A stretch of DNA of 64,000 nucleotides from positions 434,001-498,000 of the forward strand of contig JAQGDQ010000087.1 in the NCBI GenBank assembly GCA_030141605.1, in the 5' to 3' direction. Source of the DNA: Tubiluchus corallicola (Eukaryota; Animalia; Priapulida). The notes under the pieces were generated by a model. That model was not told where the DNA came from, did not search any database, and worked only from the letters and a program-made list of their open reading frames with translations. The translations under genes and the position numbers were made by a program. Of this stretch, positions 8,724 to 64,000 are shown one piece after another (the first letter of the stretch is position 1; each line of letters opens with the position of its first letter).

Positions 8724-34326
<25,603 letters not shown>

Positions 34327-42667: not shown

Positions 42668-42948
42668 TTATTCATCTAAAGCATTTAATAATTTATGTCC
42701 GTGGAGTAAGTTACTACTCTGTGATATAGGCGCGTTCACCTCACAATCATACTGGCTCAATGCGTTAAGTGCAGGTATGAGCCGACTTCTAGGCTTCGGC
42801 GTTTTGTCACCTGCCTTGTCCTGTGAGCTCTGGCTGTGTACGTAGCCACTGTTTATATCTTCGCCCTTCAGTAGTAAGTTCTTTAACACGCTGTTCTCAA
42901 GGCAATGAGTGTTTCCTGAAGAAGGAAAATTCGTCTTGATAGGTGTTT
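42668..42948 (-). CDS. HIF1A: HIF-alpha terminal exon with C-terminal transactivation domain: (E)TPIKTNFPSSGNTHCLENSVLKNLLLKGED...[27 protein letters not shown]
   Basis: Minus-strand acceptor tctaatttacag|, 281 nt, phase 1 start; FIH-target Asn codon at 42734-42736. Confidence 0.95.
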
Positions 42949-45900
42949 CTGTAAATTAGAAGCTACCATAAACGGGACGCATTACTGTGCTGCATGCTCT
43001 ACTACCTGTCTACCTACTGCTATTCAGACATAGCAGATTGATGGGTTAAAAATATTATCATTACTCTTACTTGTTTAGGTGTGAGTTTGCCTAAAACACT
43101 GAGTGCAGAGATTACAACAAAGCGAGTGATAATAACTCTTAGAATAATTAAAATTAATTAATATTAAAACAGGCATGAGCAACTTGCCTTTTATTGGTAA
43201 TGCAGCACAAATTATTGCATTAATAAAGCATAATGCAATAAATTTTCCAGTGTCCATGGGCTTAGTAAATTACATGCACGGCAGTTACTTATTACATCAA
43301 ACAAATGAAGTTGGTAAAAGATGAGTTGACTTGGTCTATAGACAGTGCCGGATTATGACCTTTTAGGGCCCTTCGCTAATGAAATTACAGGGCCCTCTCA
43401 GATGGAGCAACCCTCTAAATTCCCTACACTTCGTCTTGAATATTTTTTTACTACTGGTATATTTTAGCGACATTAACACAGCTTGAAGTAAACTTATCGT
43501 AAATTCTTTAAATAAACTAGATTAGCTACCTTTCGTTTATCAATAAAATATTCTTTAAGAAATACGACTGTTTTACTATTTATTACAAACTAAATTAGCC
43601 CACATTTCAACACAAACGTAGTGACAAAACAGATTTTTTTATAAGAACTGACCAGCATTATAACAATAAAACAAGAAAAATAAATACTGATATGACTTCA
43701 GATAATGAAACTATTTAGACGTTATAACATCTAAAAAATTGAAAAACACTGGTTTACAAAAATATCTTTTTTAAAGTTTAAATTTTATTTTAAGTTAATT
43801 GAATTATTCAGTGGCGCAAAATATTAAAATATGTTCATTTTTCAAAAAAAAGTGTAAACAGAATTTTGAAAATCTTTTAGCAGGGCCACTCAAGCTTGGA
43901 AGCACCAAGTTTGAAGGGCCCTGGGCTGCATCCTAAACCAGTCTATAGGATAATCTGGTTGTGCCTATAGGCAAGTTAAAAAAGACGACTACAGTTCAGA
44001 GTAAATATAACAGAAGAGATTAGACAAGCCAAGTAGTGAAACTTCACTAGTATGATGTCATAATTATAATCAAGGCACTCAGTCATGCAGCGACTGTAGA
44101 GGTTTAGAAAAACATACACAACTATGAAATGCAATTGGCCATTATTATTCTGACAGGTAGTTGTCCAGGAAGGTATTTAGGAATAACAGAAGTACTATTA
44201 CGCAAGAAAACTGCTTATCATACAGATACAGTATGACAGGTGTAGTGCATTGCAGGTATTAACAATGTTCAATCATGCTTACTGATAATCATCAGCTAAA
44301 CTGATGTTTCTGAAGTAGGTCTGTATGAAAATGGTGATTAAAGTAGATAGTGGCAACAGCTCTTTAAAGGAAAACCGGTTGATTTTTCATATCTTGGCCC
44401 ACTTCGAAATACAGTAAAAAATGTGCATTTTAACACCTATAATAATGCCAAAGCATTTCTGGTGATTAAATAATAGATTAAAACATCTTAATTAATGGCG
44501 AGCCCAACTGGTGATGTCATTACAACTGAACGTAATTTTCAACAGCATGAACATTCCACGAATGTGTCACATGTGAAAGTAAAAATTGAAATATAGTGCT
44601 ACTGTACAACTTTCAGTGTGATACAAAAACACGGCACATTTTGAGTTTAAAATACAAATTTTAAATTTACCCGCTGTGCTCACGCATGAGCTCTCGAATC
44701 TGTGTACTACGTCACATCTGCACATTTCTGAACTAACATATACAGCATTGTTTATTGTGCAATGCGTTATACGAGATGCAGGCTCTAGAAGTACCCATCC
44801 AACTAGTGAATGGCAAACGCATGTAACAGTGAACTAGCCATGAGAATGCGAAATTAGTATTCTGTTGTAATAACTTTTCCATATAGTCATTCTTGATAGT
44901 CACTCTTGAAGAAATAGTATGTTCCCTTTCAATTTTTTATAAGGTAGATTGTTTGAGATGGGTTCCGGTTTTCCTTTAAAACAGGTGAAGCCAAAAATCA
45001 AGGCACAAAGCTCACATTGTTTAGATTTGGAGCGCATCACACGACATGTTGTTCTGATGTCATCATTTTTCATGAGCTGTCACATTTAACTAAATGGTAA
45101 ATTGTTTTAATCAACAGTTAGCAAGGTAATTAACTACTAACCTCTCCCAATTAAGGCTTTCAAATCTTTATGAATCATAGATTGTACATCTAGATTTCCA
45201 CGTTGACGTTTGTGCCCCTGGTTTGTGTCCGTGTCGACTGGACGTTTCATACCAGCATAATGGTGGTCTGTAATGTGACTAGCTGAATTCTAACGGAAAA
45301 AAAACATTTCTATTAGCATTCAATTTGCTGCAATGTTTTAGGATAAGAAGTGTGTTGTTCAAAGTTTTGCAAATGAGCTGATGCAGGTTTACTGCTCGAG
45401 AAACAGGGCAATTAAGTGATGCAAATGATTGAATTACCTCTCATTTTTTAAATTCTATTTATTTGGCAACCAATAATTTTCAACCAAAGATCTTTATCAT
45501 TATCACACGATCTTTGCAAACTGAAAATCTGCTCTTAGGGAAGGGGATATCTCCAAGTACTTGATGAGATGCACCAACTTAAGAAGCTCAATGAAATAAG
45601 AAGTGATAGTGTTGTTCCAACAATGGTAATAAATGTGCCAATAAGAACCGGTCGAGTACAATGATAAGCCTCATGGTGTCGTACTGTCTACACAATAATT
45701 TCTGAAGATGATTATAAACGCGTGCTAGTTGGTTGTGTTAGAACTTACCAGACAGATGCATAGAGGGCACATTTTGTAGAATAAGTGGTAAAGGTAACTA
45801 CAAGCTGCAAATGATCACCTCTCAGGTGAACCCCCTACAGCGATTTCAGTCTAGTGAGGTTTCTCGACAATTATTAAGCGCGAGCTGACACTCCCTTCTC

Positions 45901-48581
45901 CATTCGCTGTGAGAAGTGGTCAAGAGTAACTTGCATTCACATTAGACGGTAAATCATCTCACAGCAACTGTTGCAATAACTTGCCGACAGTAACTCGCAA
46001 AAGAGTTCACATTTGCATGTTTGCTGTCAGACAGAAAACTCGCTAGCATGAACGTGCATTAGGACCTACATTAACTGCACAGACAGTCACAGTGCATTTT
46101 TCCAATGTTAGTATCATGTGACCGATAGGTGCCAAGACAAAAGTAAATTCCCTAGTAGCAATGCTAAGTGCAGCTTAAAAAAGATTGAACTGAATTATTT
46201 TTGCTGAAGTATTTTGAAATGAAGCGTTGACAAAGCTGCAGAAAATAGGTAAGCAATGAGAATAGCAGTACTGCAAGCTTTGGTTTAGTTACCATCAACA
46301 TCAGGTACATGCAGACATTTTAAGTTTAGGTTTGGTTGTCTGCACAATCTGACATTCCACATAACTGGAGACTACTATAACTGCGACATTTGAACATGAA
46401 CTACACATGACAAAGCTATAATGTCTTACTTGTGTCAGGTTTCCATTCTGTAGTAATTTCGTTAAACTGGATGACAATTGAACAACTGGCTGTCGGTTTG
46501 GTGATCCAGGCGATCTAACACCAGTACGACCCTGCGGTCGGCCTTTGGCAGCAAATGTATAACTGGACTGTAATGACTTCGAGTCCTGCCTCTGTTTGTT
46601 GGTAGTGTTCTTGCCTGGTATATATAGACGGGATTTCGTGCCAGGCAAGTACATATCGTCCGTCATGCCCATGGGAATGTATGGCGCTCTCATTTCTAAC
46701 TCTTCCACCTAGATGGAGTAAGTGTAGCAAACACACGTTGATTTTTAACTTACAGGAAGACAGGATGACTTTTCATATACTACCCCATTTTCATGTCCGA
46801 TAAAACGTATACAATTTTACACAATTAATACTGCAAAAGCATTTCTGATAATTAAATAATAGATTAAAAACTTAATTAACAGCGGGCGAGCACGTAGCAT
46901 TTCCGAAATGCAGGCACTAGTGCCAGTTTAACTAGAGAAATGGTGAAATGCATGTAACTTAAGAGCTAGTGGTGCAAACGTGAAATTGTGTTTGTGTGGT
47001 AATAATTCTTTCACGCAAGTCATTTTTGAAAAAAATAACTTGTTTCCTTCCAATATTTTATAGAGTAGATTGTTCTGACCTAGTGTTTAAGACTGGGTCC
47101 GGTTTTGCTTTAACGATTTTGAGAAAGAATAAAGCACATTCAACATCAACAAACAATTTTTAATGATTGGAAAAATAGAAATCCATATAGATTGTTGGGC
47201 TGAAAAGTATATTCGCTCGCACTATTACATCAGCAACATCTCAAAGCAAACAGCAAATCTTATTTTAGTCAAAGATGCAATTATGAAAGGTTACAAATTA
47301 AAAGTATTACAGTAGAAGTTCACTTTATGCCTACAAGAAAAGTGACAGCAATGCAACTAACACATTAACAAAATGAAACTGCTCTAGCAAGATCATCCTG
47401 CTATTAATTAATTCCTGTGCAATCACCTAGCAGCATCTCGTGAAAGAAACGACAATTACAATTTTAATGAGATCTATATTACAGCAACACAATCAACTAG
47501 CACAAAACAACAAACTTTTTTCTTTATACTGAAAATGTGTTACAAGACATACATACCGAATCTGAATCCTTGTCTGATGTTTTGTCAGCAATGATACCAG
47601 TCTCCCAGGATGTGTCCATGGTGCACAATTTATCTATCATGTCCATGTCTAATGAACTGGACTGGTCAATTTCGCCTGTAGACGAATGCTGCAAAAACAA
47701 GGGTAGAAAATACAATAGTAAATAGAGTTTACCAGAAGTGTATTTCTAATTGTATAAATAAATTTCTAATCGTATTTTGAATGTACAACTAGACAGGTTG
47801 ATCAGCATGACTTAAACCAACATACTAAGCAGACGCAACCAGACTACCATACGGCAAAACAATAGTAAGTCACGTGATCTCATGTTTCCTGACACTTTTG
47901 CTGAAAATGTATTCTACCTCAGAGTGTGACAAAACAATAATATGACATGGTGAATCAGCACATATTTTTATTTTTAGTTCTTTCCACTTGTGTTGATGCT
48001 GGTGCATGGATCACTGATGATCCATCAAGGTTGGCACTAGGTAATTCGTTCATTCAGTAAATCAAATACGTTTAGTTTATTTAATTTCTCACTCACGCAT
48101 GCACGCATGCACTAACTCACGCACGCACTCACTCACTCACTCACTCACTCACTCACACTCACTCTCTCTCTCTCAGTCATTCAACAAGATAATTATTCAG
48201 TCAGCGAATCGGCCAGCCAGGGAACTAGGCTAAACCAAACCAACCAACCAGGTAAGCAGTCAGCGAGTTGTGGTTGCCAGTCAACAATCAACAGACCAAC
48301 CAATAAAACAAATTTAAAAAAGTGAGTTTATTGGTTAATTAATTACTGTTTTCGTGCCCTGACCAGTTAATCAACTAACAACAATAAGAACAAACAACGT
48401 ACTCTGGAACCGTCTGAATGATCAGCTGGACTTGCAGGACTCTTGATGCTGTTACAATTGCTCTTTTTCGTTCTGTAAGTGTTGTCACCTCCAACCATCA
48501 TCTCAGGAAACACGGCTTCGTAGCTTTTAGCGGGAAACAAAATGTCGTCATAAATGTTGATCTTCTGTTGATCAAACACGC
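42668..48581 (-). CDS. HIF1A: Hypoxia-inducible factor alpha gene, C-terminal half (5'-partial): complement(join(42668..42948,45142..45289,46430..46708,47557..47688,48403..48581))
   Basis: Five GT-AG exons in one frame (1019 nt, ~338 codons). They carry LEMRAPYIPM (equivalent of human HIF-1alpha CODD LEMLAPYIPM, Pro564) and the C-TAD [30 protein letters not shown] (human [30 protein letters not shown], Asn803). bHLH-PAS and NODD exons not seen in the window. Confidence 0.93.
43343..43963 (+). mobile_element. hAT-like MITE (family B), longest copy
   Basis: Termini CAGTGCCGGATTA / TAATCTGGTTGTG; degenerate 8-bp TSD TCTATAGA / CCTATAGG. Confidence 0.7.
44368..44975 (+). mobile_element. Family A non-autonomous DNA transposon, TTAA TSD, Kolobok-like termini
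   Basis: Perfect 11-bp TIR AGGAAAACCGG / CCGGTTTTCCT with TTAA on both sides (44364-44367, 44976-44979). RR..YY termini with TTAA TSD fit Kolobok rather than piggyBac. Confidence 0.85.
45142..45289 (-). CDS. HIF1A: HIF-alpha coding exon: NSASHITDHHYAGMKRPVDTDTNQGHKRQRGNLDVQSMIHKDLKALIGR
   Basis: Acceptor tttttccgttag|, donor AGAG|gttagt, 148 nt, phase 0-1, exactly bridging the flanking exons; contains a bipartite-NLS-like KR-x10-KRQR. Not in the ORF track. Confidence 0.85.
46430..46708 (-). CDS. HIF1A: HIF-alpha coding exon with C-terminal oxygen-dependent degradation motif: VEELEMRAPYIPMGMTDDMYL...SSSLTKLLQNGNLTQ
   Basis: Acceptor tactccatctag|, donor CAA|gtaaga, 279 nt, phase 0-0; target Pro codon at 46682-46684. 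Confidence 0.92.
46754..47109 (+). mobile_element. Family A element, internally deleted copy
   Basis: AGGAAGACAGG ... CCGGTTTTGCT|TTAA; both ends match the 3757 copy with the middle missing. Confidence 0.75.
47557..47688 (-). CDS. HIF1A: HIF-alpha coding exon: HSSTGEIDQSSSLDMDMIDKLCTMDTSWETGIIADKTSDKDSDS
   Basis: Acceptor ttgtttttgcag|, donor TCG|gtatgt, 132 nt, phase 0-0; acidic/Ser-rich ODD-type linker. Confidence 0.82.
48095..48175. repeat. Simple repeat (CACG)n/(CACT)n/(CT)n
   Basis: Directly visible. Confidence 0.8.
48403..48581 (-). CDS. HIF1A: HIF-alpha coding exon: xVFDQQKINIYDDILFPAKSYEAVFPEMMVGGDNTYRTKKSNCNSIKSPASPADHSDGSR
   Basis: Acceptor tttatttatttcag|, donor AGA|gtacgt, 179 nt, phase 1-0, open and in frame with downstream exons. 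Confidence 0.82.
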
Positions 48582-51445
48582 CTGAAATAAATAAAAAACA
48601 AAATGGTTATATTAAAGATTGCAGATTTGTAAAACTACAAAAATGGAAGCAGTTGATATGCACTCGCATGGTTCCTTTAACACTTAAGACTGAAAAAAGA
48701 GTTATTCATTTACCCCAAAACACAAATTGCTTGATGACAACTCTTCACAACAAGGCATCAAGAAGGGACAAGCAACTAATAATGTGCCACCATATAAAAT
48801 TATTGAATCAATTTTCCATTGAATTGTCACGGCGATCATCATTACAGTGACCGAGTCCGCTAAGAAATCATATTACATCAATTGGACAACATGTCCTGCA
48901 CCTGGCATTCAATAATATGTAATCAAGGAAAAAAGTAAACCTGAAAACAACAGAAAGTTCTAGAAAGTTTTGTTCGTAACAGGACAGCATCACATGTTTG
49001 CTATGATGATGATGCCAAAACCACCAATATAGTGGAATAATTTGTGTAATGTATCAGATGTCTAAAATGGCCTAGGATGACAGTTGTGCAGGACAAAAGC
49101 AGGAAAGATGCAAAAAGTGGATAAAAGCTGTCGCACGTTCCTATTATCGAAGGCAAGAGACTAGTAAACAAATAACTGCTGCTCTGCAAATTTTGTGCAA
49201 AGAAAAATGCAATTAGTTTATCTGTTGATTAGACGTTAGTTTTCACGTTATTTACCGAAGATGGTTGCTGTTCAACGTAAGCTGATGTCAGTGACGTGTC
49301 AATTTCTCATGAGCGTGCTTACATCACAACGCAGGCGGAGCGAGAAACTAATATGTTTGACGTCAAATGATCTGTTACACGCCTCAGATTGTCACGTTAT
49401 GTACGACAGAAGCCTGCAGTGCACACTCTTAATCTAGTCTTCGGCATGGTTATCTGAACGCTTGACCTTTTGGCTGGTGCAAAACCGCCGTTGTTTCCAG
49501 ACGTGATGAGACAAACCCAGATGTAACGATCAATGCCTGCCAATTTTCAAAGTTTACTTGAGAGAAAACTGCAAATCGAACTCGACATCGACTGCTTTTA
49601 TACGAGTCACATTGACAGGTTTTCCATTAGATCCTGGCTAAACGAAAAACCCATAACCAAGAATTCGTTTTATGGTACATGAAGATTCGTAGTTTGTAGC
49701 CAGTCGGACGGCAGTCATAGAAACTGCCGTAATAGATATACGCATCAGAAATCTAGTTATAAACTAGCTTCAACTAATGGCACGATTCATAATGCAGCAC
49801 AATCAGCACTCAATTCCCTGTCAAAGATATTTCTGCGAGGTTTACATAGAGAAACGGTTAAAGTCAATAGGAATGACAGTTCGGTCCATGCTTCTCCGAT
49901 TTGTCAATAAAATTCTTGTACCAAAGCCTTAATCGATTGGAGTCGTAAAGCCCCATTGTATGATGCCCAAGTGCCTGGCTGTCCACGTATAAGCCACAAA
50001 GCGATGTCAGCCACAAACAATCCAAACAATCATATAAAAAACAGCTGCCAAGAGAAAGCGCTGAAAACTCAAACAAATAAACGCAATTATCTTGAATTCA
50101 CTCTAATTATTCATTTATACTTTTTATAGCATTTTCGAGCATTAGACAGCAAAGTGGCGGAACGATACAAAACTTCAATTTACTAATACAAGAAAGATGA
50201 TCTATGTACCCTAATAAGCCTTCTCTCAATGTGCAAAGCAGTTCAATTCATTTAACTTAATTTTCAAACACTTATTACTGTATCAATTTGTTACTATATC
50301 AATTTCTTTTTTACAGGTCTGCTTAATCATTACCTATTTGACTTTTGTAAATACATAATTAGTGCATAATTTACTGTAGCAATTTCTTTACTGGTCTGCT
50401 TATTCATTACTTATTTGGCTTATGTTAATTAGTGAATAATGTTCTATACTGTTGCCTCTGCCTACATAAACTGGTTCCAGTTTTGTAAAAATTAGCCATC
50501 GATGATGACAGCAGTAAGTTTGTCGAAATGTTTGGCATGATTTTTATCTACGCAAATTTTAATGAAGTTGTGGTGTTTTGACTATAAACACTTTTAAGTG
50601 CCTGTAATAAAAAACTTCATAATTTAATTTTTTCTACGTTTACTGTACTTAAAATTTAATTCAGTAAACATCAATCAAAATAAATGTACAAAACTCTATC
50701 TATAATTAAGCATTTCATGGATGTTGTACCACAGACATTTAAGTAAGTTTTGTTCGTTTTTGCCTGCATTTTCTGGCACAGTAGATAAAACTTCTGCGAG
50801 TTTGGGTCAAGTTTAGATACCTATTGAACTTTTACATAATTACATCTGCTAATCATGGTAAAAGCAGACAAGCAATATTTCTTTTGCATAATATTGATAA
50901 ACTGAAAAAAAACTGCAGTGTGAAAAAGCTATGAAAACCACTAGCACAGCATACATATACTGTGCTTGTATAGTTATAATCATTCAGTTGCAGAAATCAA
51001 ACAGTTGTAAGTTTAGTCTGCTGAAGACAAGTTTGACTGACACGTGACAACTGCTTTACTAACTAGAAACTTTTTATCACTCTTACTAGCCTAACTAACG
51101 GAGATTTAATCACTGAATTAAACTCAACTACACAGCCTTCAATCCAGAGTTTGTTTACAGAATCAAGTGTAAACAGGCTGCACTTTGTAAACGAAAAAAC
51201 ATCATCCAGAAACTGTTCAACAAGGTCTGCTAGTACTGCAGCTGAACATACTTCATGGCTTCGTGGCACACTGTTACAAAACAATAACAGAAGAAAAGAA
51301 GCCAAGTTTTACTCCACAGTTCAAGGGGTTTTCATTGCCTACAGCTACAAAACAATTATAGACAAAAAGAAGCCGAGTACTACCGCCTACGCTCACCGTT
51401 ATTTTTTAAACAGTAATGAAACAGAATGATGAGTGATTGCGTGAT

Positions 51446-51631
51446 TACTAATTACACAGATCTGACTACGTATACTAATTACACAGATCTGACTAGTATA
51501 CTAATTACACAGATCTGACTACGTATACTAATTACACAGATCTGACTACGTATACTAATTACACAGATCTGACTACGTATACTAATTACACAGATCTGAC
51601 AGCGTATACTAATTACACAGATCTGACAGCG
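51446..51631. repeat. Minisatellite, 27-bp unit x~7 (TACTAATTACACAGATCTGACTACGTA)
   Basis: Head-to-tail near-identical units. Confidence 0.93.
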
Positions 51632-52399
51632 CATCAGAGACATGTCAACTTAACATCAACAAGCTTGTATGTACATGTGTAATACTCGATACAAAACGAA
51701 GTTGTTTAAATCCACGATGTAGCGTATATGTATTATGTAACAGTAGACTTTTGTGAGATACCTCTTCCAGAACCTTCGTACAAATTTTTCCATGTCATTT
51801 CTGAAATCTACGCTAAAAATTGCACTAATCAGAATTTTTCGATATTTAAAAAAGACTCAAAATTAAAAATATTCTTCATTGGGTGCCAAGTTTTGGGGCC
51901 CTATTTTTTTCTAATCTGCAATAAATACTCAATGTTTTTGTAACAGCAAAGTTTCATATCACACTAACCCAACAAATTAACGCAATAATTCGGTCGTACA
52001 CTCTAGGCTAGGCTGATAAATACCAAGGAGAAACGGGTAATCTTACAAATTGATTAGATTAGCAACTCCAGACAGACTGTCATTATACAAAAGTTGAAGC
52101 CATCAAAAACCAGCAGCATTAGTGTCTGATTGTGAAACCGCGCTGTTAAACGAGGAACAGACCACCAGTCTAAACACAGCATGAATGGAAGACCAGCAAC
52201 TACATTACTGAAAAACTATTCTGGAGGGAGGATTTTAAATCAATAAAGTATACAGGATGGGATTAAATATTAACAAAATCGTTGAATTGTTAAAGAAGTT
52301 TGAGTGAGCAGTCGAGATGAAAAACTGTTTTACCGGAAGACTTGTCACAATTACAATCGGATGTGATCACATTGTCCCTGAACAAGGCAGCGAATCTGT

Positions 52400-52562
52400 G
52401 TGATGAATGTATTGGTCACCCATCTGAATGCTTGCCAACCCTAGCATTGTCCAACTTCTATCACGCGGCGGCCACCCATCCAAATACTGACCGGCTTCGG
52501 TATTGCCAAACTTCGGTCATTAAATGTACACCGTGACCACTCAGCTATACATTCCCCGCCTC
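52400..52562 (-). mobile_element. Composite SINE-like head: tRNA-type A box followed by 5S-rRNA-derived segment
   Basis: Minus strand reads TAGCTGAGTGG (A-box-like, 52537-52547) then ACCGAAGTTTGGCAATACCGAAGCCGGTCAGTATTTGGATGGGTGGCCGCC (52467-52517), matching the 5S rRNA internal control region; a second GATGGGTGACC follows at 52414-52424. Confidence 0.65.
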
Positions 52563-55500
52563 AGGCAAACTTAACGCTGTTAAAGGCAGACTATTTAATT
52601 GTTGCAATAATTATTCAGCAAACAATAGCAAGGTAGGCGCTGTATTCAGCAGGCAAATTTTTAAACACAACAAGGTAATAGATCTTAACAATAAGAATTG
52701 AAAAAAGGCGAAAAGTAAAAGAAAGAAGTCAAACACTGCGCACGTTATTTAAATTTATAATATAACTCATATAAATGATGTACAATTAGTCTGTTGCTGG
52801 TATTAACACTCTTGTTCGAGCTAAACTAGAGCAGCTCTAATTATTTCATAGAATAGGAAGCAGCAGTAGAAAAGCCACACACGGCTGTACCAATCAATGG
52901 ATAGCATTATTACAATGTAATGAATGAAGCTCTCAATCCATTTAGTGCATGCTGCTGACGTCAGCAGCACTGTTTGCAGTGCAAGTGGCCGGGTATGGAG
53001 TACTCGCTTGACTCGTTTCATCAGACAAATTAACTGCGTGCGTTTTCCTACGCAAAAGTGCAAATAAGGTTATTATCAGTTTTCTGGTGAATGCGTTGAA
53101 TTCACAAAGGAGACAAAAACATGATTTTATCAACAGGAACAATTTACAATTGTCTATCAGCTTTGGAAATTACTTTCACCCAGAAAGCATCTTATTTGTA
53201 TGTCCGAGAAATCGGAGCCTAGATCATCATCCATTGATGCTTGCCAAATATAAGTTTTCTACAGACGAATAAAATACCGTTCCCTGCGGAATAAACCAAA
53301 CCAGATCATACGCAATTATTAAAATTTGAAATCAAGCTATATATAAATAGATAAACGGATAGGTTTATTAAAATTTAAAAAAAACTTGACTGAGAAAGAA
53401 AAAATGCGAGAACTTGGGACTGAGCATGGCACCCAAGGACTTTAGACATAATTATAAGGCTTGGCATAACATTGCATCCTTGCTTCCCACAGCTCATACT
53501 ACACGTTACAGCTCGCTCACATTATTTCTCGCATTTTAGAAACCTGTTTTCACACACATTGTAGTAGAGAATAGATTTTATAGGTGGGATTTCCCCACCA
53601 GGTCGGCCCAGTACATAAAATGACGAACAGAATGTTGAGAATTTTATAGTCGAGATATTAGCATTTTGATTCAACAATTACGAAAAGCAGTAAAGTGCGT
53701 ATTAGAATAAATTTTCATTGAAATTGAAAATGATACACTTGTCATGCATATCAAGCAATCGTTTCTGCTCCCGTTATTAAAGCATACGTCAATGTAAAAC
53801 TGCAATCAAGCTCAAGTTAGCTTTGTGAGCCGCGGGTTTAGCAAACAATTTGAGCAAAAATGCCTCGCCATTTGAAAAGACATCTCGCAATAAGCTGCTT
53901 CCTCAGATAAGTCAAGGAGATAACTAGGATTACTGATGCAAAAAGGTCACCTTGACAAGGTTATTTTGAATATTTGTACGTTCCACTTCCTCTACATATA
54001 GCTGCACCATTATCTAGGATTTCAAAATATGTAAGTTTAAGTGCAGAAACTTCTATAAGGTCAGCTCTCCCATTACAGTCAGTCATTAAAGGAGACATAA
54101 AAACATTCACTCGGCTTAAATATCACACGTTCACAACACAAACGAAAAATGATGATGACCATGATAATGGTGGATGTTACAGATTCACAGTACAAACGAA
54201 AAATGATAATGACGATGATGACAGTGATGCTGATGATTAGAAAGATAATAATGCTGGTACTAATAATGCTGGACTGATAGCACCATCACGTGCAATAATT
54301 ATAACCATCAGAACTTCGAAACGAGATCTGTAATTAAGAGTACAATGATAGATAATGAAACTGGCAATAAAGACAGATGGTGACATATAGCTTGACGATA
54401 TGAAATGATGATGATTAAGTGATTTTTTTTATTAGTTTGAACTTATTATTATTATCACATTCAGTACAATCTAGTGACATTCAATACACGGTGATATTCA
54501 TATACACTGTCGTCATCATAAAAGAATAATTGTACTACAGTGGGCTAGAGAAGCAAAGGCTTGTATTGGTTCACTGTCATGTGAACCAGATAAAAAAGAA
54601 TTGATACTTGAACAAAAAAAGAACCGGGAGAAACGTTAGATCACACAGGACCGGAAGAAGGATATGGTAGTGCAAATAGTACAAAAGATACAGTAGATTG
54701 TGCGATGTTTACATCAGCTTTAAAAATTTACTAATGATGTCTTTTTCGCATAATCTGTACCAGACTTGTAGTATGGCTGCTGCACTAGGTGTAGGATAAC
54801 AAGAATTGTATTTATTGAAAATCATTGCTTATGTGATAATAATGAATTTCGAAAGTATGTAACTATTCACATTATTTTGTGAACCAGTTTACAATACCAG
54901 CTAAGAATAACAAGCCAATGTGTACTGTTTCATCATTTTCAATGTGACCCATATCATCTAAGTGCACGACCCAAGGTAAGGATGATATAAATACAAGGAA
55001 TTAACATTCTGAAGTAAACTTACTGGTCTAGAATCTAGAAACGTTAACCTTTTCTTTTCAAACTAAACAAGCCTCTTTGATTATATGCATAATCTGTACG
55101 TAAATAGTTTCAACCAAGCCTAATTGCAAACATAGTGCGCAACCACTGCTTGTATTATCTAACAAAATAACATTGCTGTTTTTTCGAGCTTATATAACAG
55201 GCGAAGAAGAATTTCGTGGTCTACATTCATCACTACCATATGCTGGAAGACAGAATTTGCCAATGTATTGCTACATGGGCTTCAGAAAGATGCCTACATC
55301 TCAAATAAATCAAGCAGACGAAATACAAGCATATCTTCTATGATAATAACTCAGAACAATTTCATTGATTATAGGCGTCATCATCGCCGCTGCTGCCGCC
55401 ACCACGAACATCATCATCAGTAATAACTTATACCATAATCATCACCACGTCAAACCTACCAGGGCTACTCAATTTGTGACAGGAACTATGGGTAGACTTA

Positions 55501-57371
55501 TGACGGTTTGTATACCTTCATAAATTCCACAACTACAGGATTCTGGGACATCCTGTTTACTTGACAACCTGACTACTGTAAACTATACTTACTACTTATA
55601 ATCACATTGCCTCTAGGCCAAACTGTTGGCCCTATAAAAGATATTTCAACTATGTTTTGTTGCAACTGTTCTAATCCAGCACAAACACACTATTTTTGTG
55701 CTACAGTCGAAACGCACATCAATCATTTAGTTTGAACAAAAGTAACCTCCCACGCACATTACTGATAGGCATTATTCACACATGCAGTCTACTGGCGCTT
55801 GTATGTCCACAATTAGACCTCAAGTTTAATATGTATTCAACAGCGCGTTCTTTTTACTTAAAGCACAAGAAAACGTTCGACTTACTTAAAGCCTAAAAAA
55901 TCGTCTTGAAATTTTATATCACTTTCATCATGCATTTTGCATATTAGATTTGCGTCGGCGATAACGATGTACAAAACATGTAAATTTAAACGACCGTTAG
56001 GCGCAGCCGTTTTGACTGCAGATAGTTTGAAACAACCTTAAATAACATTATGAAAAGTATGAAAAAATAATCAGAATATTCGGAACGCACACTTCACTAA
56101 CTAAGCAAATGTAAAAATTACTGATCTTGTCAATACACTATCTGATTAAAAGTACTTTTTTGGTGAATCTGTGGTGCACACTGGGAAGGTGAGTCAGTGA
56201 TATTTTACCAGGTGGCGCGAACATTTTAAATTATTAAGAATTTCCTTTTCTAGTTACATAAGTCTTTTCAAGCAGGTAAACGAATGTAACGTAATATAAA
56301 TTGCTTTTTTTCCACATTAAGTTTCTCAGCGGCAGGAGAGCAAACATAAAATGCTAGGAATTAACTTGCGCATGTAAGAACCTCAACAGCCTGATAACGA
56401 AAATTATGTGTTCGGCTGAAACACTTCATAAAACAAATCAAAATATATATGACACAAAAATGTTGACTTATCAACTGCATTTTGAAATTCATTACTTTTA
56501 TGTGGGTAAGTTTCCATGGTGACTATGCATTTCAACAACACAGACTTTCTTGGCAGTCAAAAACATGCAAGTCAAACCTGCTCAAAATAAGCTTATCCAG
56601 CAGAATAGTTGAAAAGGCATCTTTCAGGGCATGAAGGAGGTCAAAATAGGAAATCAATGTCTGGCGTGTAGTAGAGTATGATGGCAAGTTTACGTTCAAT
56701 AAAAGTAGCTGGTTGATTAGGTTAAGAAAACAGTGTGAAGAAGGTGGTATTGATTTCACTCGCCACAATAATCAACACAAAATCGGAGAAATTTCTAGAA
56801 AACCACAAAGTTTTTTGTCTTATCTACCTCGCACGTATCAGGTATTTGTATTAGTAAATGACATACTCGGGAATTTTAATTCGATTGTTGTTAAACCCAC
56901 TCAAAATCATCTACGTTTTTGTATAAATTGCACCAGACAAGGACAATAGCTGCTTGTAAGAAGCTACAAAAGAAACGTGAAAATATGAGCTATGTACGAC
57001 CGAAATTAAGACTAATTTGCTAGTGACTGGGAAGTTTGCAAGTACCTGTTGATGTCGTTCTTGGGGAAACAATTTTCTAGTAGATGATTACACAGCCCTA
57101 AGGAAAAACTACATTGATAAGTAGTTGTCCTACATCTAGGAATGTCTAGGGTAACCAAAAATGTGAAAAGTAACAACAAAAAAGAACGATGCAAAGCTGT
57201 CAGCGTTTAAGAGCCCATGGGGCAACGACGAAAGATCCGGAGAATTTATCTTCCACGGAAATAACAATAACAGAAATTTAAACGTCTACAATTTAATCTG
57301 ATTGCACTACTATAACATATAACAGTCAAAATTCTTCACTGGTGTACCAGAAAAATGACTGTATCATGCGT

Positions 57372-57682
57372 GCGACTGTGGCCTATGGCTGCAGACTCAC
57401 ATGCTTCGAATCTTTGCCAACGCAAGCATCTTAAAGGCGTACTGAAGACCATGGTCGGTTTACTCTGGCAGCTATGCCTGCTATTGTGGCCTATGGGTAT
57501 TCACATAGTTCAGATCTTTGCCAATGCACGCATCTTCAAGACGTACTGAAGACCATGGTCTGCTTATTCAGGTAGCTATGCTTGCGACTGTGGCCTATGG
57601 GTACAGATTCACATGGTTCGAATCTTTGCAGATGCAAGCATCTTAAAGACGTACAGATGACTGGTCTGCTTACTCTTGTAGT
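57372..57682. repeat. Diverged tandem repeat, ~104-108-bp unit x3
   Basis: Units start at 57372, 57480, 57584 (tgtggcctatgg..tcacat..atctttgc..gcatctt..cgtactgaagaccatggtc). Confidence 0.85.
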
Positions 57683-60511
57683 TGTCATTCTTCAGCGCAG
57701 TGGTTTGAACTTTTACTTGGCTGCCTTTCAAAACAAGATTTCTGGTGATGCCTGGTAAACAGCCATGCACGACTAATGGTTCAGGAAATTTATTATTTTT
57801 AATTTTTGTGCAGATTTTAGGAACGTAGTTTACCTGTATCAAAATTCGTATAAAAAGCCTAGCTTCTGTGTCGTACCGTCTTATGTGAATTTTTTTTTGT
57901 ATAATCAACTGTAAAAAAGATTTTGCTGTACAACGGCTAGAAGCAATCTTTGCAGATGTACTTTTCTTGGTCCACATTCTGGCACTCAAGATTGCAAACA
58001 GAAAATCCACGGAGTCATGCCAAGTGTGTTGGCGTGTTGACGGATTACATTCACTATTAATCATGAGAGAGAGTGTGTAACATGGTAGTTAGCCTCCCTT
58101 AACATCTTAGCAAACAAGCTGCTTTGCTGTACACGTTCTTAGATTGCTCTTCAACAGAAATTACAGCAAATCGATTAAGAAAGTTCAATTTAGAAGTAGA
58201 AACGACTCCATTCGAAGGAAATTCAAGGAATGTCATAATGCTGGAATTTATCACTGGTGAATCCACTAGTAATAACACTGAGTGCCAGTGCTCATAAAGT
58301 GAATGAGATTTACTACACCATTAGAGATGAACAATTGCCCGGATGTAGTTCATTGTGAGTTTCCTGTTACCTACTGCGTTAGAAAATATTTCAGCTGCTG
58401 GAAACGAGGCAAAAAATCCAGAGTACTCCCAAGAACTCTACAATTACTACAAGTTGTAATCCTACACCTTTACACGAGGAGGTGTACAAAACTGTATATT
58501 TTTATAAATAAAAAAACTGATTTACATGAAAAAAACTTCTTACCTGAGAACGGACTGTAATTAATCAGGCTTAAGCAACACTTGATGCCAGTACAACACT
58601 GAAGCTTAATTTTAATATTTCGACATGCTCTTATCAAAAACTCTATATAACATAAGAACCTAACACAATTTTAACAATTTTCGCTTCTAAATACATTCTC
58701 TTAGACCTTCAGATTAAGGGTAGTAAATTTAGCAATGCTAAGATCCTTTGTAAGGCATTGATAATTTATTAGTAATTTTTCATTGTGTCTCTTTTGTAAG
58801 TCCATCCGTCGTAGTTTTTGCTTCTTGAAGGTTTTTTATCCACGGCTTTTCTGTTTATTTGCTAACACAGATCGTTTGTTGAAATTTCCATTTAGTCAGT
58901 TTTAACACGCAACTAAGTTTCTGCAAGACCAATGCTGAAATGCGTTTACTTTTGCGTCAGTGCCAAGAAATCAGAGTTGACTGTTTTGAAATGCTGTAGT
59001 AAGTAAATGACATGCTAATGAAAAATGCAACATAGCTCTTGGATAATAACACAAAAACATGCTTCCTGTGGCTACTATGTCCACTTAACTTTTAATTAGC
59101 AATTACTAATTAGCACGCAGTAAAGCCCCCTGACACGACAATTTCCACATTTTTTTACTTGTTTGCTCGTCGTTTTAAAGAATCAGCATACAGCTATCTG
59201 ATTCTGCTTGAACAACTTTTCTGACAAAATATCACACAAACCCTGCCTTAAACTGCTTAAAGGCGTAAAGTATTATAAAACTTTACGTATTTTGCAAAAG
59301 CGAGACCGTTCCCTATAACGAACAAGCAGTAAGCGGCTACACGCAGTTAGAATTTTAAGTGATGGTCATTAAGTTTGTATAAAAACGATTTAAGTTATGA
59401 GTTTCGACAAGCGGAGGTTGTTCGCGAAGGACAAGAGGGGTAAACAGTTATGTAATCTTTCTATTAGGCTACTCTTACACAGATTAATAACAATCACAGC
59501 AAGCAATACACACACTACACTAGCCTATTTGAGACCCAGCTATGTTTAGTGTTTATTTTGTTATTTAAAACCCAGCGCTGGAAATTTAGAACTCGCCTAC
59601 GCGGCCTGTCACGCGTTCCAGCGCACGCTGTAGAATGGAAAAGTCCGGGTTGCACCAGACGAAAACGCCAACAAAATTACTATTGATTTAAATGACGTAA
59701 GCTCAAGTGGCGCGCATTGTGATTGGCTGACAGACACACACCCACCGCGTACCATACACGGAGAGACGCGCTCAGTAGAACGGGTACAACGGGACTAGAA
59801 TTTCCAGTTTTCTTGCAAGGACGACGGGAAAAGTCGACGCAAAACGTGGAAAATATTGAAAATAACTGCTTGTAGGTCCAATAAACCACAGCAGACGCCA
59901 GCAAGTTTACTATATAGCTTCCCGCTGTTACTGATATTATTATAACCATGCTAGTAGATCGGTAAAGCAATAACTACATGTTCAATAAACATCGTGTGAG
60001 GAAAGAATCACTTTACGGCAACAAAATGTGTACATGTAACATAATTTCATTCTAGGCGTCTAAGCACAGCGAACATATAAAAAGACACGAAATATAGCCT
60101 AACTTTACCAGACTAAAATAGACTGGTTCATTCTGTCAACCAGCACTCCCACAGACAGCTTCGCCAAGTTCTGTAGTATGGATAAGATACATGTGTTCAG
60201 GCAGGGCTTTTCTGGACCTGTATAAAAGTCAACTACTAAACACTGGGGCTACGTCCAACTATAGACAACCAACAGTATATCTATTTTTCACTACCAGGCG
60301 GCTTGTACAGAACAAAATAGAAAAACACATTTACTCTCTTTTGTGTTTGCCACAACAAAGTTCATTATTTTTTGCAACTCGGTACGTCAATTTTAATCAT
60401 CACTAAAAATGATAACATTTTTAAGACATTGTCAATGAACAAAGACAGAGACCTTGCATCGCATTCCATAGACAGCATTGTTTGAGGCCATAAAAGTTTG
60501 CAAAAAATATC

Positions 60512-60925
60512 CAGGGGCGTATTAACCAATAGGCTCAGCCTAGGGCGTCAAAGTTTGAGGGGCCTCACATTTTAGCAAAATTCTTATTCTTCTCGGAAAA
60601 TGTGCATACCTTCATATTCATGTAAAGGGCACATTTTATAACACCACAGGTAGTTACGGAGGGCAACTTTTATATAAGTACCACATAACGAACATATGCA
60701 AGGTATTACACTAGCATTTGCGAGGCCTGCTTGAATATAAATGTTATGTAAATACATGTACAATGTAACTAATAATGACCGCGTAGAACCTAGATTAACA
60801 GTGTTTCTAATACACCACAAGTAATTGTTTAATCTGCTCATTACATAAACAACCTTAAATTCACAATAGAGATGGGCGGACAGAACTATCAGCCTAAGGC
60901 GTCGTGAAGTCTTGATACGCCCCTG
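60512..60925. mobile_element. hAT-like MITE
   Basis: TIR CAGGGGCGTAT / ATACGCCCCTG; 8-bp TSD AAAATATC / AAAATACC (7/8); subterminal TCAGCCTA(G/A)GGCGTC at both ends. Confidence 0.85.
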
Positions 60926-61737
60926 AAAATACCTGAACAGTAATAAAACTGGTGGTCTTCTGAAGAATGTAGCCATACGTTTTGATACGTACTTTGAAAG
61001 ATGACGTTCATCAAACCTAATGCCTTACCGAGCCTAGGACCTAACCTTATGAGCACTCATAATTTGCAATCTTCAAAGAAAGATCATTTTATCTTTCCTA
61101 TTTCAAGAAGCCAGTTATCAGACTTAAGACTCTTACTCAGTAACGGTCTATTTCTAAAAACAATGGGAATGGCAGCAACAACTTTCATGCCTCGCAAGGC
61201 TTACATATGATTACTCTATTCTACTTTGCAGCCAAAAAAGGCGTCTATAAGCGACCAAAAGCAACAAAGTTACAGAAAAAGTAAAACAAACGAGCAAGCG
61301 TTAGGTTACTTCATCCACTTTTGACGAATTTCTTCTAATTTGAGTTCAGATTTCATGCTTCTCCCATGTTTGCACTCATGAGATTCCACTCATCTTTCCC
61401 TCAAAAGACAGCAGGCAGTTTTGGCCACCATCTCTCGCAAATCTGAACATGCCTCAGCACTTAACGTGAATCTGTTTTCTCCTCACATCAACGAAGATTC
61501 TCAAGTTGTGATTGCAATTTGTAAATAACTGCTGGGGAGAGCAGCAGGTTAGCCACGGCAATTACATGAACTCACCTCACTAATGGTGCTGTCACTAGCG
61601 TTCAAAATTGCAATAAAATACAATGATAACATTTTCCTTGAGAGTTTGATCAAGTAATAAATATATGAAGGTAAACCAGCACTGCTCTAAAATGACCTTG
61701 CTTATCTTAACTAATGTGTAAATCTTTTAGCTTACTT

Positions 61738-62043
61738 GAATGCATACTACGAATCTTTATGTAAGACAATGTATTCAACTGGAATGCATACTACGAATCT
61801 TTATGTAAGACAATGTATTTAATTGGAATGCATACTATGAATCTTTATGTAAGACAATGTATTCAACTGGAATGCATACTACGAATCTTTATGTAAGACA
61901 ATGTATTTAACTGGAATGCATACTACGAATCTTTATGTAAGACAATGTATTCAACTGGAATGCATACTACGAATCTTTATGTAAGACAATGTATTCAACT
62001 GGAATGCATACTACGAATCTTTATGTAAGACAATGTATTTAAT
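61738..62043. repeat. Minisatellite, 44-bp unit x7 (GAATGCATACTACGAATCTTTATGTAAGACAATGTATTCAACTG)
   Basis: Head-to-tail near-identical units. Confidence 0.95.
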
Positions 62044-62652
62044 GAGTCCTTAAATGCTTCTACTGACTAAAAAATAACGAAATCCAAACTACAGCAATGC
62101 GAAATTAAGTGTAAGCGTGACATTGAATTAAATGTCGACAATAACCACCTGTAAAACAATAAACGCATCAACCACGCCCATCACCGCGAAGGCCAACGAC
62201 AGCAACAGCAAATAACAACATAATTATTACCACCTCACCAACAATGGTCACAAAAGTTTACCAAATGACACCATCATCACCATCTCGTCATCATCATAAT
62301 CAGCAGCAGCAGCTGCAGCAGCATATTCGCCCACGATTGATAACTTTACGAGCTTCATATCGCTTGCTACACATGTACTTAATAACAGATAGTTTCATTC
62401 ACAAATCGTTTATGAGTTATTATTAATGATGACAGACATGTGATTAATGATCCATAAAAAACATTTGTAGTCAATAGTCACTCTGTCAGTGATTAGCTTA
62501 CATCCAAGGTAGCATCCAATGCCCGAGGTTAATTTACTGCATCAAATTACACCCAGCCTGGTTGTTGCTGGCAATCCAAAAACCATGCTAGCATCACGTT
62601 AAAATTCTATTCAAAAATTGCTGTAATAGCTTTGAGTGATACGATCACTTAC

Positions 62653-62844
62653 CGTAGCCGAACAAATCCCTGCAAAACTCTACGAATTCAGGTCCTAGTG
62701 AGTACAACGATATACAACAGTCTTCAGACGACTCGTCCAAGCAATACTCATCAACGTGTTTATGCGGCATGATTATATCACAGTGTAACAGAGCTTCCAA
62801 TAGATGATGCTCCTCAGCCTGGCACCTAGCACTGGAGATATTCA
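62653..62844 (-). CDS. Candidate alternative HIF-alpha exon (internal first exon from ATG 62770: MPHKHVDEYCLDESSEDCCISLYSLGPEFVEFCRDLFGY-G; or a 192-nt phase 1-1 cassette exon)
   Basis: Consensus donor TACG|gtaagt in phase 1, matching the phase-1 acceptor at 48581; open frame; ATG with A at -3; possible acceptor ctcactttctcag| at 62844. No homology to known HIF domains that I can recognise. Confidence 0.5.
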
Positions 62845-62899
62845 CTGAGAAAGTGAGCTATGGAATCCGCCGCCACCGCTTGCTTCAACCGAAGATTAT

Positions 62900-63665
62900 A
62901 TGACGTGCTAAATTTAGTTGGTTTTACGCAGGATTACACCAAAGAAACCCAGCAGGCATATATGGATAGGTCTCGCTACAAGCAGGTTCAAACTACTATG
63001 CACGTGCTCACCTATGGACTTGTATACGCTGATCACATACCTGATTATTGATAAGCAACCAGTTATCAAGGGAGTGTAAATCTGTTCGATACACACCAAG
63101 TCTCACCTACGAGGCTGATCCATCAATGCCATGAAATCAATAGTGCTCTACTGTTTTGCAAGAAATGCACGCAGACGAATCGTTAAAATGGGTATTATTC
63201 GAATTTCAGTGAATTCACTGTCCAGGTACGAATTTTTCTGCAGCTCAAGGTCGTTTGCAAAAAGCTATACTTATTCATATCTCACATGGCCTACTCTCGT
63301 TTAGTCGCAGCGAAAAATCGCAAGCACGTGAATTTTTAAATCATTAATGGCAGCAACTAACTACAGCCAGCTTGAACTTCAGATTTTTGCAGCTACAGGT
63401 AGCTGAACAGCACCACGTGTACATAAAATGCAGGCAAGTTAGCACGTGTAAATTGTAGCCAAGTGCGCATGCGCAATTTACATTCTTTACGGTCGTAAGT
63501 ATAAAGGTACTCTAGTCACTATACAACTCATGCGCGCTATTTTACGATTGGTGCATTTCTTCGGAAATCGATTTCGTAACCAGCTAAACGAAAAATTTGA
63601 GCGTCTTTAAAATGAACGTCTGGCCTTGATTTCATGAATACATGAACTGCTCTTCTGCGTGCCTC
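62900..63665 (-). promoter_or_regulatory. Putative internal promoter/enhancer of HIF-alpha: HRE/E-box cluster, NRF-1 site and CCAAT box
   Basis: CACGTG at 63001, 63325, 63414, 63443; further RCGTG cores at 62903, 63168, 63657; perfect NRF-1 consensus TGCGCATGCGCA at 63464-63475; ATTGG at 63547-63551; visibly CpG-richer than flanks. Confidence 0.5.
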
Positions 63666-63873
63666 TTTCAGTGAAGCATCACAGTGGCCTTGAACAAGAT
63701 TTAATGGTTCTGTAAAAGATAATTCACCCTACTCCTGAATGCAAACTCTTGAGACCGGGGAGTGCTTTAAACAGTCGTTACTCGCCAAGCCCAGGCCATT
63801 CTTGACTGTTTTCCTTTGCAGCAAAAACGATGGATGTACTCAAAATACAGCAAAAATTTAAACAAAAAAGTTT

Positions 63874-63995
63874 AGGAGGAGAGAGCGAGAGACAAAGAGG
63901 GGGAGAGTGTTTGTGTGTGAGAGAAAAGGGGAAGAGAGTGAAGAATGAGGAGAGAAAGAGGAGAAGAAAGAAGGGCGAGAGCGAGAGAAAGAGAT
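63874..63995. repeat. GA-rich low-complexity purine tract
   Basis: Directly visible. Confidence 0.8.
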
Positions 63996-64000
63996 TGTCT

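Follow-up and report, generated by a model that had tools for sequence, protein, structure and literature searches.

Does Tubiluchus corallicola make a short HIF-alpha protein without the bHLH and PAS domains, what kind of promoter would it come from, and what would it do? The question is raised by the minus strand of the window (the whole 64,000-nt stretch of DNA analysed here), where an open frame ending in a splice donor at 62653 had been predicted to join a HIF-alpha exon at 48581. I find that 62653-63021 is spliced and serves as the first coding exon in a short HIF-alpha transcript. The reading that I favour, tentatively and with slightly less than even confidence, is that the 367-aa protein comes from what is likely an internal, E-box-rich promoter of a single HIF-alpha gene and serves as an oxygen-gated competitor for p300/CBP, likely damping full-length HIF.

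Two sets of assembled reads with the same species label cover parts of the locus. X1 is taken to be DNA-like, as it covers intron stretches with about 0-2% differences from the window, and X2 is presumed to be RNA, a status backed by GT-AG joints and an RNA adapter. X2 differs from the window's exons by 7-8%, as against about 0-2% for X1 in introns; the source of X2 is probably a cryptic or sister lineage, a loosely applied label or a paralogue, rather than the individual that gave the window. Support for the transcript comes from one contig of this one run, about 92% alike to the window. The 5' part of the transcript unit is laid out as follows.

62653-63021, minus strand: first exon, 369 nt (251-nt 5' UTR plus 118 coding nt), unbroken in X2 over 62651-63022
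62653-62770, minus strand: coding leader, 39 codons plus 1 nt, from the ATG at 62770 to the phase-1 donor
62924-62959, minus strand: 11-codon upstream ORF within the 5' UTR, kept in X2
48582-62652, minus strand: first intron, 14,071 nt, GT-AG, joint seen in X2

The 531-nt X2 contig joins the block 62651-63022 to the block 48435-48576, with the intervening 14 kb left out (joint 48576-62651). The letters that hang loose on its donor side agree with exon 2 at 29 of 30 positions in the predicted register, and at 7 of 30 if shifted by one. The original prediction had proposed a search for RNA reads across the 62653-48581 junction, and one X2 contig carries that junction, which is computed to be in frame; the X1 joints listed (15 of 55, from DNA-like data) do not include it. 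The donor itself, G/GTAAGT at 62653/62652, is present as described and is one of six GTRAGT sites on the minus strand of 48600-64000. At 63022, the other end of the contig, 25 loose letters, which recur in 156 papers, form an Illumina small-RNA-type adapter; a trimming command in the accessible text of one paper names them as the read-2 adapter (PMC8090853). Their orientation fits minus-strand RNA with 63021 as the 5'-most base recovered, although a start cannot be fixed from contigs and the true one perhaps lies somewhat upstream. An isoform from an internal promoter should have a first exon and a 5' end of its own, and a single X2 contig has both, with the junction, the 5' adapter and a frame that is closed above the ATG. 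A high-copy repeat, which would have undone the case, is contradicted by an X1 depth of 6 over 62693-63356, like that of unique intron bins, and the window holds no second copy of the first-exon segment. The first intron also contains, at 61738-62043, a 44-bp minisatellite of about seven copies.

The ATG at 62770 had been said to stand in good context and does so, with A at -3 and C at +4; the closest in-frame stop above it lies at 62860, 30 codons up. X2 and the window differ over the first exon by 30 substitutions, 28 of which are listed, plus three gaps. Among those 28, 11 fall in the leader, which has no indels; nine of the 11 are at third codon positions, and eight are synonymous against three non-synonymous. 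On the same 28 of 30 substitutions, pS is 0.36 (8 of 22 synonymous sites) and pN 0.03, a pN/pS of about 0.09. Random placement with the same transition share gives at least eight synonymous changes with p = 0.003. The pattern indicates that the leader is under purifying selection. Its description as a Cys/His leader stands for the four cysteines, which are the same in X2, and fails for the histidines, one of the two being changed there. An origin of the leader as a decayed NODD exon is rejected for lack of any PF11413 or PDB match. The distal 5' UTR (62845-63021) differs at 8 of 177 positions, again counted on 28 of 30 substitutions. For the leader's synonymous sites the figure is 8 of 22, and the comparison suggests that the UTR is constrained as well. 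The upstream ORF at 62924-62959 could exert translational control on the short form. On the plus strand, antisense to the 5' UTR, 62810-62839 contains a NODD-like LxxLAPxxGD in one frame with stops on either side; 200 base-shuffled windows gave no such match. This motif, which the deletion described below and one substitution destroy in X2, is likely due to chance or a decayed inverted relic.

Could 62653-62844 instead be an internal exon of the usual kind, part of full-length HIF-alpha and joined at 62844 to bHLH-PAS exons upstream? There is a good acceptor before 62844 (pyrimidine share 0.79), and the window's frame is open from there, but the X2 contig runs through 62844 to 63022. In addition, X2 has 9 of the 28 of 30 substitutions listed in the 74 nt of 62771-62844, together with a phase-changing deletion of 11 nt, and its frame is closed by a stop 10 codons above the ATG. 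The deletion and the stop just above the ATG argue for a first coding exon and not an internal one. The internal exon is thus largely refuted for X2, where the read-through also answers the original prediction's own worry that the exon might always be spliced at 62844, and I regard this explanation as very improbable. Three donor-like sites near the 5' end (63011, 63040 and 63106, minus strand) may, with the acceptor at 62844, allow an optional 5' UTR intron; the X2 contig shows no such splicing.

Downstream of the leader, the frame runs through five more exons.

48403-48581, minus strand: exon 2, 179 nt, phase 1 to 0; 3' border predicted, X2 cover to 48435
47557-47688, minus strand: exon 3, 132 nt; X2 links its 3' border to exon 4, 5' border by prediction
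46430-46708, minus strand: exon 4 with the predicted CODD, 279 nt; joints in X2
45142-45289, minus strand: exon 5 with the NLS-like motif, 148 nt; joint in X2
42668-42915, minus strand: last coding exon with the C-TAD, stop at 42670-42668; acceptor from an X2 loose end

The six minus-strand exons (62770-62653, 48581-48403, 47688-47557, 46708-46430, 45289-45142 and 42915-42668) have AG/GT borders and form an open frame of 1104 nt including the stop, or 367 aa. A product of 378 aa (1137-nt CDS) had been predicted from an acceptor 33 nt upstream of 42915, and this has to be corrected. A second X2 contig, which joins exon 3 to 4 and exon 4 to 5, has a loose end that matches at 42915 in 29 of 30 letters and at the acceptor 33 nt upstream in 6 of 30. 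Taking this in-frame alternative, at 42948 (minus strand), would lengthen the protein by 11 residues; it is unused in X2. A micro-exon-like stretch of 20 nt between an AG and a strong GTAAG donor (43090-43071, minus strand) is rejected as an exon, since its phase does not fit and X2 joins across it. Between 48435 and about 47590 X2 cover has a gap, which takes in the junction of exons 2 and 3 and would also hide a full-length form entering there. Contig depths are 101 for the leader contig and 163 for the downstream one, values that I did not use for ranking isoforms.

The domains expected of such a tail are found by Pfam, PDB and pattern matches, as the original prediction held: a CODD, an NLS-like motif and a C-TAD, without bHLH-PAS. 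The C-TAD matches PF08778 (HIF-1a_CTAD) with E = 1.6e-11 and 44 bits against a cut-off of 25, and the FIH- and p300-bound HIF-1alpha peptides 1h2k_S, 1l3e_A and 1l8c_B with E of about 3-5e-7; its PDB matches also include the CITED2-HIF fusion chains 7qgs_B and 7lvs_F. A Cys and an Asn in it correspond to Cys800 and Asn803 of HIF-1alpha, whose roles are described in the accessible text of PMC5576430, the predicted FIH-target asparagine being residue 346 (42736-42734). The CODD motif, with its predicted PHD-target proline at residue 152 (46684-46682), reaches E = 9e-4 and 18.9 bits against PF11413, below the curated cut-off of 27. It can be aligned residue for residue with 1lm8_H (E 0.15) and also aligns to 1lqb_D (E 0.36), both of them HIF-1alpha peptides from VHL complexes. 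Weak on its own, this putative CODD becomes convincing through its position before the C-TAD. A bipartite basic motif at 45247-45200 (residues 251-266) is NLS-like, a label given by pattern only. Pfam finds neither a bHLH nor a PAS domain in the six-exon product, which is thus not a canonical HIF-alpha transcription factor. Beyond the 3' end of HIF-alpha, and converging on it, exons of a Tubby-family gene lie on the plus strand at 23715-31916 (PF01167, E 1e-6 and 3e-11).

Searches for protein homologues of the C-TAD exon and of the leader returned none, and known HIF-alphas were likewise missed, so that this is no sign of novelty. The last exon met only scores of at most 0.83 in the ESM Atlas, and none of 596 metagenome candidates matched the C-TAD. 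For the leader, 2 of 218 metagenome candidates remained, L001 and L002, which are equal in score and span. L001 is a long ORF of microbial or viral origin with RNase III-like motifs; it shares a single 8-residue word with the leader and is dismissed as a chance match.

What drives the first exon? The window contains 14 CACGTG palindromes, and the cluster that had been reported is real, with four of them at 63001, 63325, 63414 and 63443. All four had been listed as upstream elements; the one at 63001 is part of the transcribed 5' UTR, and the other three lie upstream of the first exon. When 62653-63665 is shuffled 5000 times with its dinucleotides kept, the mean number of copies is 0.23 and the share reaching four is 0.0002, and a scan statistic puts the chance of any 443-bp span holding 4 of the 14 sites at 0.001. 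The CACGTG cluster exceeds chance.

62902-62909, plus strand: RCGTG site flanked by GCT, within the 5' UTR, the same in X2
63001-63006, no strand assigned: CACGTG E-box, inside the 5' UTR, unchanged in X2
63325-63448, no strand assigned: three CACGTG E-boxes (63325, 63414, 63443), 304-422 nt upstream of the 5' end
63464-63475, no strand assigned: NRF-1-type palindrome, the only one in the window, about 440 nt above the 5' end
63547-63551, minus strand: CCAAT box, about 530 nt above the observed 5' end

The three additional RCGTG cores of the original prediction are present (62903, 63168 and 63657), with one further core in the coding part at 62754. At 8 per 1013 bp, the density of distinct RCGTG cores over 62653-63665 is tied with a stretch near 49000, and hence only the cluster of CACGTG palindromes is unique. 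Both RCGTG sites in the 5' UTR are kept in X2, a result that is not significant alone at the UTR's substitution rate; X2 cover ends at 63022, below the three upstream E-boxes. The NRF-1 and CCAAT motifs are likewise in the sequence as described, the palindrome at 63464-63475 being one that I take to be an NRF-1-type site. Such sites at 440-530 nt above a 5' end are farther away than is typical, and the CCAAT box sits in an X1 contig of depth 67, possibly repeated or low-complexity sequence. When an HRE consensus with a 3' GC(T) flank is assumed, 4 of the window's 10 matches fall within 62902-63448 (0.0005 for any such span), a figure that has to be read with the consensus having been chosen after the flanks were known and 3 of the 4 hits being shared with the CACGTG set. 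TACGTG does not occur on either strand above 59000 in the window. In SELEX, according to the accessible text of PMC12774657, HIF-alpha/ARNT selects TACGTG, and ARNT homodimers and MAX select CACGTG. Together, the cluster and these preferences make it likely that a bHLH-type factor acts here, HIF being one candidate among several. To judge from the motifs, there would be about an even chance that HIF/ARNT helps to drive the promoter and closes a negative loop.

Two other stretches have regulatory features of their own. Within the first intron, 59600-59830 is promoter-like (CpG ratio 1.14 over 59001-60000, an extended CCAAT at 59721, a CRE-like site at 59693) and might be a further start or an antisense promoter; it is outside X2 cover. 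Just above exon 2, a possible enhancer at 49000-50000 combines a CRE-like site (49358) with eight distinct RCGTG cores.

Is the promoter internal to a full-length HIF-alpha gene, or does the short form have a gene to itself? The absence of bHLH, PAS and forward NODD sequences from the more than 15 kb above exon 2 had been noted before, and Pfam and pattern scans confirm it. No HLH or PAS family appears at E<=0.05 in 150 of the 154 minus-strand stop-to-stop frames of at least 28 aa in 48600-64000 (the leader frame was scanned separately, and three frames at 63781-64000 were left out), and a six-frame pattern scan finds no bHLH basic-region motif in the window. Upstream bHLH-PAS exons thus lie outside the window, which ends at position 64000, 980 nt above the first exon, or do not exist. 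If they do not, the short HIF-alpha would be a stand-alone gene that arose by fission or partial duplication, with bHLH-PAS encoded elsewhere or lost. The empty 15 kb are what such a gene predicts, and the X2 contig, at depth 101, crosses the acceptor at 48581 unbranched and with no sign of a second upstream exon there, though contigs cannot show absence and drop rarer forms. NRF-1-type and CCAAT motifs are features of ordinary promoters and would suit a gene of this kind. Oyster, moreover, is described in the accessible text of PMC5096685 as having a second HIF-alpha-like gene. Against this stands the rule, stated in the part of PMC9427102 that is open, that invertebrates have one HIF-alpha gene; by that rule an internal promoter is more likely than a second gene. 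With 14 kb in the first intron alone, more exons beyond 64000 are plausible. Exon 2, with its phase-1 start and no start codon of its own, accepts either upstream exon. I therefore hold a stand-alone gene to be unlikely. That the first exon is driven by a promoter internal to the full-length HIF-alpha gene is probable, and what counts against it is that neither a bHLH-PAS exon nor a full-length transcript is seen within the window or X2.

Known PHD/VHL and FIH chemistry suggests how the short protein would behave. In air, its CODD proline would be hydroxylated and the protein degraded, and its C-TAD would be blocked by FIH. In hypoxia it would be stable and nuclear and would bind the TAZ1 domain of p300/CBP. 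The accessible text of PMC5576430 describes an unhydroxylated C-TAD binding p300 CH1/TAZ1, FIH blocking that binding in air, and CITED proteins competing with the C-TAD for the same p300 domain. Without bHLH-PAS, the short protein could neither dimerise with ARNT nor bind DNA. I infer competition for TAZ1, and the simplest effect would be titration of the co-activator, as CITED proteins do, with full-length HIF damped. A sink for p300 needs no conserved 40-aa leader, which is a point against the co-activator sink. The most specific version, a CITED2-like inhibitor made from the HIF-alpha tail, with a HIF-driven internal promoter, a new and conserved Cys-rich leader, accumulation in hypoxia only and removal of p300/CBP from full-length HIF, is a doubtful proposition when all its parts are taken together.

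The same isoform could be driven by other E-box factors (CLOCK/BMAL1, USF, MYC/MAX or an ARNT homodimer) and tuned by clock, tissue or growth with no HIF loop, the C-TAD perhaps being tethered to DNA by a partner via the conserved leader and activating. All four palindromes are CACGTG and none TACGTG, which under the SELEX preferences (PMC12774657) speaks for these factors, and the transcript is present in X2, a run of unstated oxygen condition. The tethered variant has a parallel in zebrafish Hif-3alpha2, which has HRE-dependent activity without bHLH or PAS, as far as the available text of PMC4769163 goes. Several of the sites, however, have the 3' GC(T) flank of the HRE consensus. A HIF-driven inhibitory isoform also has a precedent in NEPAS, which HIF-1alpha regulates through HREs in its own locus (accessible part of PMC13760070), and control by other E-box factors without HIF seems unlikely. 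A hydroxylase and VHL decoy is somewhat less probable still. The short protein would then compete as a substrate of PHD, VHL and FIH and raise or prolong full-length HIF, a positive feedback or hypoxia memory. Both predicted hydroxylation sites are retained, and excess ODD peptides can stabilise HIF. But the hydroxylases would be oxygen-limited in hypoxia, where extra substrate should add little, an unhydroxylated C-TAD would presumably bind p300/CBP at once, and the NLS-like motif is retained. I rank the p300/CBP sink above the decoy because low oxygen limits these enzymes more than substrate supply does.

Should the competitor reading be true, the short form would be a built-in brake on the low-oxygen response, and it would reveal the means by which an animal that has one HIF-alpha gene sets the ceiling or the duration of that response. 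Priapulids withstand anoxia very well, a trait that would make the finding more interesting for physiology. If the gene is stand-alone instead, HIF-alpha would have been split in two, which would be as unusual. Known inhibitory HIF isoforms work with PAS domains on ARNT. A protein that has nothing but CODD, NLS and C-TAD would control the pathway through the co-activator or the hydroxylases.

In the literature searched, which was thin on subscription papers and excluded supplements, I did not find an isoform with CODD and C-TAD but without bHLH and PAS, and none of the 25 of 292 matches listed for one of the searches mentions priapulids. A PAS-less HIF-alpha that keeps both oxygen switches would be a variant, not found in that literature, on known internal-promoter isoforms. 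Among the closest of these is C. elegans HIF-1c. In the available part of its description, the promoter of HIF-1c is in intron 4, and the protein has no bHLH or PAS-A, retains PAS-B and an ODD, and inhibits by binding AHA-1 (bioRxiv 10.64898/2026.08.17.745244). Both forms are short, lack bHLH, have an ODD element and come from an internal promoter (inferred here); HIF-1c is oxygen-sensitive and nuclear and damps HIF. They differ in that HIF-1c relies on PAS-B and AHA-1/ARNT binding, whereas the short form here has no PAS and has a C-TAD. The cryptic exon of HIF-1c, as that text has it, is removed by trans-splicing and is not conserved, whereas the leader here is coding and conserved. The words 'HRE' and 'feedback' are absent from the main text on HIF-1c as far as it was available (bioRxiv 10.64898/2026.08.17.745244).

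Human HIF-1alphaTe, mouse NEPAS/IPAS and human HIF-3alpha4 are described in the accessible parts of two sources as inhibitory HIF-alpha forms made by alternative promoters or splicing (bioRxiv 10.64898/2026.08.17.745244; PMC13760070). According to those parts, it is the PAS or bHLH-PAS region they have kept that acts on ARNT or HIF-alpha. The short form here has no PAS; IPAS, without ODD and C-TAD, is its mirror image. Zebrafish Hif-3alpha2 is alike in lacking bHLH, PAS and PAC, in keeping a transactivation domain and in being nuclear, and unlike in arising by exon skipping, in lacking the ODD, in being oxygen-insensitive and in its 170 aa, the present form having a CODD and its own first exon (available text of PMC4769163). 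Isoform d of oyster CgHIFalpha-like shares an invertebrate HIF family, a different 5' end and the loss of bHLH, but it belongs to a different gene of the family, only its bHLH is reported missing, and no promoter HRE was found, by the open part of PMC5096685. Amphioxus and locust isoforms, in the portions of the papers available, show variation in the ODD or have no C-TAD (PMC4066832; PMC9427102).

An ARNT-binding PAS domain, the mark of the class of HIF-1c, NEPAS and HIF-1alphaTe, is absent here: the short form is probably made like the internal-promoter isoforms and, having no PAS, cannot use their ARNT-sequestering mechanism. CITED2 is HIF-induced and is not known outside vertebrates. In the function proposed here, the nearest likeness is to the CITED proteins, DNA-free competitors for TAZ1 of p300/CBP (accessible text of PMC5576430). 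They are unrelated in sequence, and in that text have no oxygen gating through a CODD and asparagine of their own, the two switches that the priapulid protein is predicted to carry.
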